Positions 26,824-29,297 of a stretch of 64,000 nucleotides of DNA are shown here, piece after piece (position 1 is the stretch's first letter; every line of letters begins with the position of its first letter). The stretch lies in assembly GCA_040397175.1 (NCBI GenBank), contig JBBAWM010000001.1:345976-409975 (forward strand), in the 5' to 3' direction. The notes beneath the pieces are model-generated. The model made no database searches. It was not told where the DNA came from and worked only from the letters and a program-made list of their open reading frames with translations. A program made the position numbers and the translations under genes. The stretch is from Candidatus Limnocylindrus sp. GTDB taxonomy: Bacteria > Chloroflexota > Limnocylindria > Limnocylindrales > Limnocylindraceae.

Positions 26824-27531
26824 ATGGCTTCTGCTACACAGGTTGAGCTCAAGATCCAGCGATATGATCCGGAGCGCGACAGTGAGCCGCACTGGCAAAC
26901 GCTGACGGTTCCGGTGGAGCCTATGGATCGCGTGCTTGATCTGCTCACGCGGGCAAAAGAGCTCTTCGATGGCTCGATCACCTTCCGTCGCTCTTGCGCG
27001 CACGGTGTCTGCGGCTCTGACGCTCTGCTGATTAATGGTCGTAATCGGCTCGCCTGTAAGTTGCGAGTAGAAGCGTTGGGCCGAACGATCACGGTGGCGC
27101 CACTCCCTGGACTGCCGATCGTCAAGGACCTAGTCGTTGATATGGAGGAGTTCTTTGAAAAGTTCCGCTCCGTGCAGCCGTATCTTGTGGCGGCACCAGT
27201 TGAGGGTGACGGTGAGCGGATTCAGAGTGAAGAGCAGCGCGATCGGTATGACGATACGACCAAGTGCATCCTCTGTGCAGCATGTACAACCTCGTGCCCC
27301 AGCTTCTGGGCGCAACCAGAATATGTTGGCCCCGCGGCGATCGTGAACGCGCACCGTTTTATCTTTGACTCGCGTGATGAGAACGCCGATACACGCTTGG
27401 ACATCTTGTCTGACGAAAATGGCGTGTGGCGTTGCCGCACCACCTTCAATTGCGTGGAAGCTTGCCCACGCGGCATCAATATCACGAAGGCGATTCTTGA
27501 GGTTTCCTCCGCAATTAGCGCACGGCGGTAA
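26824..27531 (+). CDS. sdhB: Succinate dehydrogenase iron-sulfur subunit
   Basis: SCAHGVCGSD...LAC, CILCAACTTSCP, CRTTFNCVEACP. Confidence 0.97.
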   Translation: MASATQVELKIQRYDPERDSEPHWQTLTVPVEPMDRVLDLLTRAKELFDGSITFRRSCAHGVCGSDALLINGRNRLACKLRVEALGRTITVAPLPGLPIVKDLVVDMEEFFEKFRSVQPYLVAAPVEGDGERIQSEEQRDRYDDTTKCILCAACTTSCPSFWAQPEYVGPAAIVNAHRFIFDSRDENADTRLDILSDENGVWRCRTTFNCVEACPRGINITKAILEVSSAISARR

Positions 27532-27533
27532 CG

Positions 27534-28844
27534 TTGTCGATTCGGTCGTACATCATTCGTACCGATGGAGCGTGTCGGGGGAACCCTGGGCCAGCATCTA
27601 TTGGCGTGGCTCTCTATGACGTTTCGCTGCCCGGATCTGATGACCCGAACGCAATGCCCATCGCCTCGATCTCTGCAGCGATCGGCACGACTACGAATAA
27701 CGTCGCAGAATGGCGTGCTGTGGTGGCGGCGATTGACTTTGCTGCGGAGCTCGGCGCGCGTGAAATTGATCTACTCCTGGATAGCAAGCTCGTGGTTGAG
27801 CAGCTCCAGGGTCGTTGGCGTGTGCGAGACGCCAAGCTCGCCCCGCTCTGCGATGAGGCCCTAAGGGGGCTGACGCGCTTTACGCATTGGAGTGCACGCC
27901 ATGTGCCGCGCGCACTGAACGGTCGTGCCGATTCACTCGCTAATGAGGCGCTTGATCGCGCGCTGCGCGGCGGGCCAGCCTGGGTCGCTCGCCGTCCGCA
28001 AGACTTAGTCCCCGCCACGGCGACTGCTATCCCTGGCTCCGATTCTTCTGCTACTGCGGCGATGCGCATCACCGTGCTCGGCTCAGGGGCGAGCCGTGGC
28101 GTGCCGCGTGTCGGTTGTCGCTGCGGGGTCTGTCTTTCACGCGATCAGCGCAACCGCCGTCTGCGCAGCTCGGTACTCGTGGAGTGGCTCGACGGTGTCA
28201 CTGAGCGCGGCGTCATCATTGATCCCGGGATGGACCTGCGCCTGCAGGCGCTGCGCCATGGTGTCACTCGACTTGATGGTGCGCTGGTCACCCACATTCA
28301 TGTTGACCACAGCGGTGGGATTGACGAGTTGCGCGCCTATACCGATGCGCAAGATGTTGTACTGCCGATCGGCGCAGGCGAAGCGACCGCGGATGAGCTG
28401 CGAAAGCGCTGGGAGTACGCGGTTGATGGACGAACGGCACCTGGCTCGGGAATCCCTGCGCTGCAACTCGTTGCGTCGGATCGCGAGGTAACGATCGCGG
28501 GCCGCTCATTTCAGGCGATCCACATCGTTCACGGGAAGCGCCCGGCTCACGGTTGGCGGAGTGGGGGATTCGCCTATCTGACCGACGTTAGCTCGGTTCC
28601 GGCGGCATCGCGCGACCTTCTGGGCGACCTTGACCTACTGATCGTTTCGGCGCTGCGCGATCTGCCGCACCCAACGCACCAGACCGTGGACGAGGCGTTG
28701 GAGCTGATTCGAGCGGTTGCCCCACGTCGGGCGCTCCTCACCCACCTTGATCACGACCTCGACTTTGAGGATCTGGCGGCCCGCCTCCCTGCTGGGGTTG
28801 CCCCCGCCTTTGACGGGCTCGTCGTAGAGGTTCCGGCGCGCTAG
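27534..28844 (+). CDS. Fusion: RNase HI (archaeal/actinobacterial type) + PhnP-like metallo-beta-lactamase-fold hydrolase
   Basis: N-terminal TDGACRGNPG, TNNVAE, DSKLVVEQ, HVPR..N..ADSLANEALD. C-terminal domain from 28062: LGSGASRGVP..GCRCGVC...RLRSS, THIHVDH, HG, YLTD, HPTH, THLDH, AFDG. Confidence 0.88.
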   Translation: MSIRSYIIRTDGACRGNPGPASIGVALYDVSLPGSDDPNAMPIASISAAIGTTTNNVAEWRAVVAAIDFAAELGAREIDLLLDSKLVVEQLQGRWRVRDAKLAPLCDEALRGLTRFTHWSARHVPRALNGRADSLANEALDRALRGGPAWVARRPQDLVPATATAIPGSDSSATAAMRITVLGSGASRGVPRVGCRCGVCLSRDQRNRRLRSSVLVEWLDGVTERGVIIDPGMDLRLQALRHGVTRLDGALVTHIHVDHSGGIDELRAYTDAQDVVLPIGAGEATADELRKRWEYAVDGRTAPGSGIPALQLVASDREVTIAGRSFQAIHIVHGKRPAHGWRSGGFAYLTDVSSVPAASRDLLGDLDLLIVSALRDLPHPTHQTVDEALELIRAVAPRRALLTHLDHDLDFEDLAARLPAGVAPAFDGLVVEVPAR

Positions 28845-28852
28845 ACTGCCGA

Positions 28853-29198
28853 TCCGGCGAGATGGCCGGACGGCCGCGTCGCCCCTTCGGGGGCGTCGAG
28901 GAAAGTCCGGGCTCCGAGGTGTAAAGGCAGCGGGTAACGCCCGTCCGCCGTAAGGCGCGGACTAGTGCCACAGAGACGAGTCCACCGCAGAGCTTCGGCT
29001 CAGCGGTGGGGTGAAACGCGGCAAACTCTGCCTGGAGCAAGGTCGAATAGGGAGGCATTCCAGTCGCTTGCGGCTGGACCGGCGCACCGCCGGGACCTCC
29101 GGGTTGACCGCTAGAGCCCCCGAGCAATCGGGGGTCGAGATGGATGGCCGTCCCCCCGCAAGGGGGACAGAACCCGGCTTACAGGCCATCTCGCCGGA
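28853..29198 (+). ncRNA. rnpB: RNase P RNA
   Basis: P1 TCCGGCGAGATGGCC/GGCCATCTCGCCGGA; conserved GAGGAAAGTCCGGGCTCC, AGTGCCACAGA, GGAGCAAG and ACAGAACCCGGCTTA. Confidence 0.96.
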
Positions 29199-29268
29199 CT
29201 CCTACCCGTGCTCGATTCGTGCTTGGCCGCCCTCAAACCCTCTCACGTCAGACCTGCCCATGGCCCCC

Positions 29269-29297
29269 TTGACAGGGGCGAATGGTGGGGGCAAAAT
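29269..29297 (+). promoter_or_regulatory. dcw operon promoter
   Basis: TTGACA (29269-29274), 17-nt spacer, CAAAAT (29292-29297), upstream of mraZ. Confidence 0.65.

Follow-up and report, generated by a model that had tools for sequence, protein, structure and literature searches.

What, if anything, a single protein gains from carrying RNase HI at one end and a PhnP-like metallo-beta-lactamase (MBL)-fold hydrolase at the other is the question raised by a locus of Candidatus Limnocylindrus at which such a fusion directly precedes rnpB, the RNase P RNA gene. The locus lies in a 64,000-nucleotide stretch of DNA (the window), for which an initial annotation had proposed a two-activity RNA-processing enzyme that might be co-expressed with RNase P.

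One reading frame, two intact domains

The fused open reading frame (ORF) occupies 27534..28844 on the plus strand, where it begins with TTG 2 nt past the sdhB stop and encodes 436 amino acids with no internal stop, the uninterrupted frame that had been described. Its upstream neighbor sdhB (26824..27531, plus strand) is the last gene of sdhCDAB and precedes RNase HI throughout the order. Pfam profiles matched RVT_3 at residues 10–139 (E 3e-16) and Lactamase_B_2 at residues 227–404 (E 4e-26), and an AlphaFold2 model of the fused protein (mean pLDDT 85.5, pTM 0.60) comprised two confident domains separated by a segment, residues 158–173, with pLDDT below 50. We place the RNase HI domain, of the RVT_3 / RnhC-Halobacterium type, at 27546..27998, the linker at 28005..28052, and the MBL domain, assigned to the 6B9V/3MD7 subfamily by profile, structure comparison, and residues, at 28062..28841, all on the plus strand. 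The linker is variable and predicted to be disordered; its length between conserved blocks is about 22 amino acids here, somewhat under the roughly 30 claimed, and ranges from 22 to 31 across the genus, with longer linkers in the sister family. An internal methionine, Met177 (28062), had been described as lacking a Shine-Dalgarno sequence, and only 1 of 21 genus sequences has methionine at this position, so the MBL half has no start of its own. Homologues at 67 to 68% identity bear the name Ca. Limnocylindrus in NCBI. Automatic annotation names the MBL half only, as "MBL fold metallo-hydrolase" or "phosphoribosyl 1,2-cyclic phosphate phosphodiesterase"; such names conceal the RNase HI of the cell and may wrongly suggest that it uses phosphonates.

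The front half retains all four acidic residues of RNase H (D11, E59, D83, and D133), as had been read from the sequence, and these are invariant in 36 of 36 homologues (21 fused and 15 unfused). It scored 60 bits against the RVT_3 profile (cut-off, 21.6), matched 3HST with an E value of 6e-27, and superimposed on 3HST and 4E19 with TM scores of 0.91 to 0.94; the proposed sharing of this RNase HI subtype with mycobacterial RnhC holds, at 42% identity to 3HST in the structural alignment. This domain gave the only RVT_3 match in the genome, and as the sole type-1 RNase H found there it would, judging from its solved relatives, clear R-loops and RNA primers. Elsewhere, RnhC-type RNase H domains are fused to histidine phosphatase, GNAT, formyltransferase, and serine beta-lactamase-like domains, a list that gains a new partner with the present fusion. 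Single records underlie an RNase HI joined to the serine beta-lactamase-like domain (L241:3001-4284, a Ca. Fervidifonticultor record) and two other fusions (L260:1003-1905 and L209:2377-3420), whose partners are GNAT and, in a Pirellulales record, formyltransferase.

Conservation, range, and history of the fusion

A stop-free, full-length fusion is present in 20 of 24 other Ca. Limnocylindrus genomes at 69 to 99% identity. Among the remaining four, one carries residues 63–436 up to a contig edge, one matched over 28 residues within an open frame of 34, and the last two, which are 61% and 80% complete, gave no fusion match. When 200 genomes of the order were searched, the MBL domain was matched in 25 of 27 genus genomes and, strongly, in 15 of 173 genomes of the sister family, these being all members of genera g3 (13/13) and g8 (2/2); 152 of the 173 gave no MBL match at all, and 6 gave weak matches to other MBLs only. 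RNase HI was matched in 198 of 201 genomes of the order, a count that includes genome G201, and in 171 of 173 of the sister family. This family is named CSP1-4 in the available text of PMC13212565, and we equate CSP1-4 with family f2 of our genome set. Fourteen of the 15 strong sister-family cases were fetched, yielding 13 intact fusions and one (G081) that is fused but carries a frameshift inside the MBL domain.

Strong purifying selection acts on both domains of the fusion. Within the genus, two clades were compared, and dN/dS was 0.04 to 0.05 for RNase H, 0.05 to 0.09 for the MBL domain, and 0.28 to 0.37 for the linker; the corresponding values in sister-family groups were 0.09 to 0.25, 0.16 to 0.26, and 0.30 to 0.41. 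All linker length changes among genus sequences are in frame, and a contig from an independent run spans the linker. Parts of each domain and of rnpB are represented among contigs from RNA runs of relatives, although contig depth cannot rank genes, and no such contig spanned the linker in runs that cover small shares of the stretch. Where both domains occur, they were never met, across about 50% sequence identity, as two adjacent genes with a stop in the linker, the arrangement that the initial annotation had named as grounds for rejecting the fusion. Nothing was found in favor of an assembly error or a very recent stop loss, although public assemblies do contain chimeric proteins that include pieces of this gene (P0041 and P0051). 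Conservation across the genus and 13 sister-family genomes refutes that reading, the independent contig and the in-frame linker changes also speak against it, and its probability is negligible; the fusion is genuine. In P0041 and P0051, the MBL half is set on unrelated N-termini, joined exactly where the RNase H domain ends, and both look chimeric.

Outside Limnocylindrales, no RNase HI::PhnP-like fusion was found in profile, phylum, and atlas searches. A profile search of 1.84 billion representatives returned two full-length two-domain clusters and two fragments among the best 150 matches, beyond which a divergent fusion scoring below about 220 bits would fall. In the ESM Atlas, one cluster holds both families and has 107 members, most commonly Chloroflexota. 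Elsewhere in Chloroflexota, the MBL domain was matched in 75 further genomes among 401 searched, and no RNase H lay closer than 1.5 kb to it at any of 23 such loci. A search of mainly open-access literature found no published report of an RNase H::PhnP-like fusion; the main text of a Limnocylindria genomics paper (PMC13212565) is silent on RNase, fusion, and PhnP, and its supplement gives KEGG ids only. Within these searches the architecture was neither common nor already characterized, in line with the initial annotation, and it appears to be undescribed, while resembling the known pairing of RNase HI with a phosphate-hydrolase passenger. Its presence also cleanly marks Ca. Limnocylindrus together with two related genera.

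All 21 fused MBL domains group in a single clade (SH-aLRT, 97). In an RpoB tree built by a quick method, with G148 left out (frameshifted) and G024 on an implausibly long branch, the fused genera fall in three places and 3 changes are needed, a pattern consistent with a single gain followed by several losses. In the RNase H tree, the genus falls inside part of g3, a grouping that the MBL data reject (p-AU, 0.006), and the species arrangement forced on the RNase H tree was not rejected (p-AU, 0.24). Since the two domain trees disagree on the position of the genus, a single-origin history is only partly settled. RpoB of G024 (L138) has 66% identity to that of the window genome and may come from a misbinned contig. 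SdhA was rejected as a species marker, as two types occupy the locus. Upstream of rnhA in several sister-family genera (L026, L028, L099, L105, and L107) are sdhB/sdhA genes of a distant type, with SdhB about 30% identical to that of the window, which suggests in-place replacement of a succinate dehydrogenase/fumarate reductase operon.

Family and active site of the MBL half

The motifs reported for the MBL half are intact: C195, C197, and C200 of the zinc motif form a structural zinc site with H407, HxHxDH lies at residues 254–259, and the metal ligands are H254, H256, D258, H259, H333, D351, and H404. The zinc site and the metal ligands are complete in 8 of 8 genus sequences examined. In HxHxDH, the last histidine is kept in those 8, in 23 of 23 stand-alone Chloroflexota proteins, and in 123 of 123 other representatives (154 in all); in 13 of 13 sister-family fusions it is alanine or serine (L023–L025, L056–L059, and L090–L097). 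The sister-family domain, which has lost this ligand yet remains under purifying selection, is possibly a mono-metal, re-tuned, or binding-only form.

The best sequence match of the MBL half was 6B9V (E 3e-52), a "new diphosphatase from the PhnP family" that shares the CxCxxC zinc motif, HxHxDH, and the fold (TM, 0.90 to 0.91) and, unlike the fusion, stands alone without RNase H, at 37% identity. It is reportedly the FAD photoproduct diphosphatase of Beaudoin et al. 2018. The same activity is given for 6B9V in the accessible part of PMC7599082. A second solved relative, Brucella BrabA.11339.a (3MD7/3PY5/3QH8; TM, 0.86), differs from the fusion in standing alone by metG/tatD, in the arrangement holB-metG-tatD, and in lacking two of the three zinc-motif cysteines. 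This protein has a di-manganese site and co-purified with GMP, and AMP and GMP were seen after co-crystallization with AMPPNP and GMPPNP; in 3MD7 the free 2',3'-diol of the nucleoside monophosphate (NMP) is gripped and its 5'-phosphate sits on the metals, Asp96 and Arg99 holding the ribose and Tyr127 stacking on the base (PMC3169410, in the portion available). The di-manganese site is conserved here, and the three clamp residues align with D264, R267, and Y295, which are kept in 21/21, 21/21, and 20/21 fusions, respectively. A clamp on both ribose hydroxyls would fit free nucleotides, cofactors, or a 3'-terminal nucleotide and would not fit a 2',3'-cyclic RNA end. Against curated equivalog models, the MBL half scored 237 (cut-off, 360) for NF038231 and 207 (cut-off, 386) for PRK02113; both scores fall below the cut-offs, making these its nearest families and the protein a member of neither.

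Identity with the C-P lyase enzyme PhnP was rejected on a TIGR03307 score of 72.4 bits against a cut-off of 272.25. E. coli PhnP (TIGR03307, 3G1P) shares the fold, the zinc motif, and the metal-binding motifs but has 22% identity and TM scores of 0.74 to 0.76. PhnJ (PF06007) was found in 0 of 5 genomes that are 91 to 95% complete, with a positive E. coli control, and a role in phosphonate use was rejected on this ground. RNase H and RNase P leave 5'-phosphate and 3'-OH ends and no cyclic phosphates. On all three counts, the cyclic-phosphate removal suggested by the initial annotation is weakly founded.

Within the MBL subfamily, 20 long matches that were scanned included fusions to RibF (4), GNAT (2), MurB, a LipB-like ligase, DXR, and a metallophosphoesterase, those seen once being possible assembly or calling errors. 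At 2 of 23 Chloroflexota loci, a stand-alone member has dnaN and a Nudix gene for neighbors, and no steady flavin-gene neighbors were found among the 23.

The rnpB neighbor and its promoter

The class A RNase P RNA gene, rnpB, spans 28853..29198 on the plus strand. The Rfam covariance model RF00010 matched 28858–29197 over the full model with 231.7 bits (gathering score, 100), and the P1 helix extends to 28853, which pairs with 29198, so the gap of 8 nt past the fusion stop had been given correctly. A predicted -10 box, TAGACT (28842..28847, plus strand), overlaps the TAG stop of the fusion; a sigma-70 scan listed no rnpB promoter and gave no -35 match, and the box is called from conservation. 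A TAnnnT hexamer precedes the 5' end of rnpB with constant spacing at 36 of 36 loci, fused and unfused, where the anchor matched (54 loci were examined, some of them duplicates), and at 23 of 23 further loci. The TAG of the box doubles as the stop of the fusion or, in L099, L100, L105, L170, and L176, of the stand-alone RNase HI. A 376-nt contig from an RNA run (X4) links the rnpB 3' end to 28853 (28853–29200), a joint in line with an rnpB start 6 to 9 nt past the -10 box; the contig itself is either circularized RNase P RNA or a library ligation product.

Linkage of rnpB to RNase HI is not peculiar to the fusion. The common arrangement in the order is sdhB/frdB-rnhA-(variable)-rnpB, and of 15 unfused genomes that were fetched from the order, 13 carry rnpB downstream of their stand-alone RNase HI; the slot between rnhA and rnpB elsewhere holds unrelated genes (an SGNH hydrolase, a META protein, and PPK2). 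By a motif scan that gives lower bounds, rnpB lies near RNase HI in at least 15 of the 18 named Chloroflexota loci, 17 of the 25 in other families of the phylum, and 10 of the 62 in other phyla, and none of these loci has this MBL. Given its wide occurrence after unfused RNase HI and a conserved -10 box of its own, rnpB is not bound to the fusion, and it is likely transcribed separately from its own predicted promoter. Downstream, 29269–29297 holds a good sigma-70-type promoter, TTGACA-17-CAAAAT, before mraZ, the start of a division and cell wall cluster.

Independent or coupled halves

The protein is probably a lineage-specific fusion of two neighboring genes for separate housekeeping activities, each half likely acting on its own, with a predicted manganese diphosphatase at the back. 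By analogy with the solved relatives, from which the activities of both halves are deduced, the MBL half would be a manganese-dependent housekeeping enzyme converting small nucleotides or damaged cofactors (FAD-like or NDP-X) to NMPs alongside the hybrid-clearing front half. Its gene may have landed between rnhA and rnpB, a slot prone to insertions, in an early ancestor of Limnocylindrales; the stop between rnhA and the MBL gene would then have been lost, giving a fusion of single origin, and the MBL domain later lost in most sister-family genera, with rnpB presumably transcribed from its own promoter.

The reading first offered for this locus, in which a PhnP-type enzyme for cyclic phosphates or RNA ends works alongside RNase P and is co-expressed with it, could draw on the PhnP-family zinc motif and fold, on the proximity of rnpB, and on one RNA-run contig of a relative that bridges the end of the ORF and rnpB, although that contig shows no single transcript and could reflect read-through or DNA. 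It is nonetheless very unlikely, given the low PhnP score, the missing PhnJ, and the rnhA-rnpB linkage without the MBL domain in many lineages; the separate -10 box speaks against co-expression, and an SGNH hydrolase gene intervenes between the fusion and rnpB in 4 of 14 fetched sister-family genomes. Alternatively, the MBL half might be a flavin-damage enzyme retained at the end of the sdhCDAB transcript on account of the heavy use of FAD by succinate dehydrogenase, with the RNase HI fusion a by-product of placement. The activity of 6B9V, the recurrence of RibF fusions in the subfamily, the 2-nt spacing from the sdhB stop, and the description of the genus as a freshwater lineage (PMC13212565, available text) would fit this idea. 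We regard it as quite improbable, however, since the sdhB/frdB-rnhA order is found equally in unfused genomes, ribF sits elsewhere in the genome, fused copies also occur in the mostly soil and sediment sister family, and stand-alone Chloroflexota homologues keep no steady flavin neighbors.

In a coupled enzyme, a reading that we consider unlikely, RNase HI would cut the RNA of a hybrid and the tethered MBL domain would finish the short products from the 3'-OH end, turning dinucleotides or nanoRNA into NMPs for recycling. The NMP pose in 3MD7 (PMC3169410, available portion) would also be that of a 3'-terminal cleavage product, and the clamp residues are almost invariant in the fusions. The lack of any split where both domains are present and the occasional placement of stand-alone homologues near replication genes point the same way. 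Furthermore, the genus is streamlined, with genomes of 1.0 to 1.4 Mb, and keeps the MBL half at dN/dS of about 0.05 to 0.09, which, with the never-split fusion, makes selection for the join itself possible. Against this, the genome also encodes RNase HII, a Pol I 5'-3' exonuclease, four Nudix proteins, an RNase J-sized MBL, and two DHH proteins, one of 356 amino acids (NrnA size) and one RecJ-sized, the NrnA, RecJ, and RNase J labels reflecting size and family; the same RNase HI operates in most of the order without such an MBL; and the best 150 matches among 1.84 billion representatives held no second, independent RNase H::MBL fusion, whereas RibF fusions recur. With these enzymes kept, there is no obvious gap for the MBL half to fill, and replacement of a missing nanoRNase or Nudix enzyme was rejected. 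The fusion first described stands, with catalytic residues in both domains; its coupling to RNase H products found no direct support.

Mycobacterial RnhC (Rv2228c / MSMEG_4305; PRK07238; 3HST) offers the closest parallel to a fusion with independent halves. It pairs an N-terminal RNase HI of the same subtype, through a variable linker, with a C-terminal phosphate-hydrolase partner, and rnpB can lie close downstream (two mycobacterial loci). In RnhC the partner is a histidine phosphatase, whereas here it is an MBL-fold metallohydrolase; the fusion scored 134 against the PRK07238 cut-off of 326, and its range is Limnocylindrales rather than Actinomycetes. The domains of RnhC were dissociated in vivo; removal of its phosphatase half did not raise RNA:DNA hybrids, and the authors credited the fusion to drift (PMC7466739, available text); separate phenotypes have been assigned to that half (bioRxiv 2022.11.09.515703, available text). 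Since both domain families here fuse with many unrelated partners and the RnhC halves are independent, independent halves are likely, in which case the fusion would be a curiosity parallel to RnhC. There remains a slim chance that the chain is an RNA:DNA-hybrid recycling machine, in which a tethered PhnP-like dimer would clamp the 3'-terminal ribose of RNase HI products and free NMPs. Were that so, a widespread and poorly assigned subfamily would acquire a function in turning over primers and R-loops, and those sister-family fusions that lack the metal-ligand histidine would be a nucleotide-sensing or re-tuned version. The fusion offers a convenient natural case in which to ask whether members of the PhnP-like subfamily attack RNA ends or small nucleotides. 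The genome also encodes a second small MBL protein of 279 amino acids (L067:1387-2223; G000:C3), whose best NCBIfam match, below the cut-off, is a cyclic nucleotide-degrading phosphodiesterase, followed by weaker RNase Z matches.
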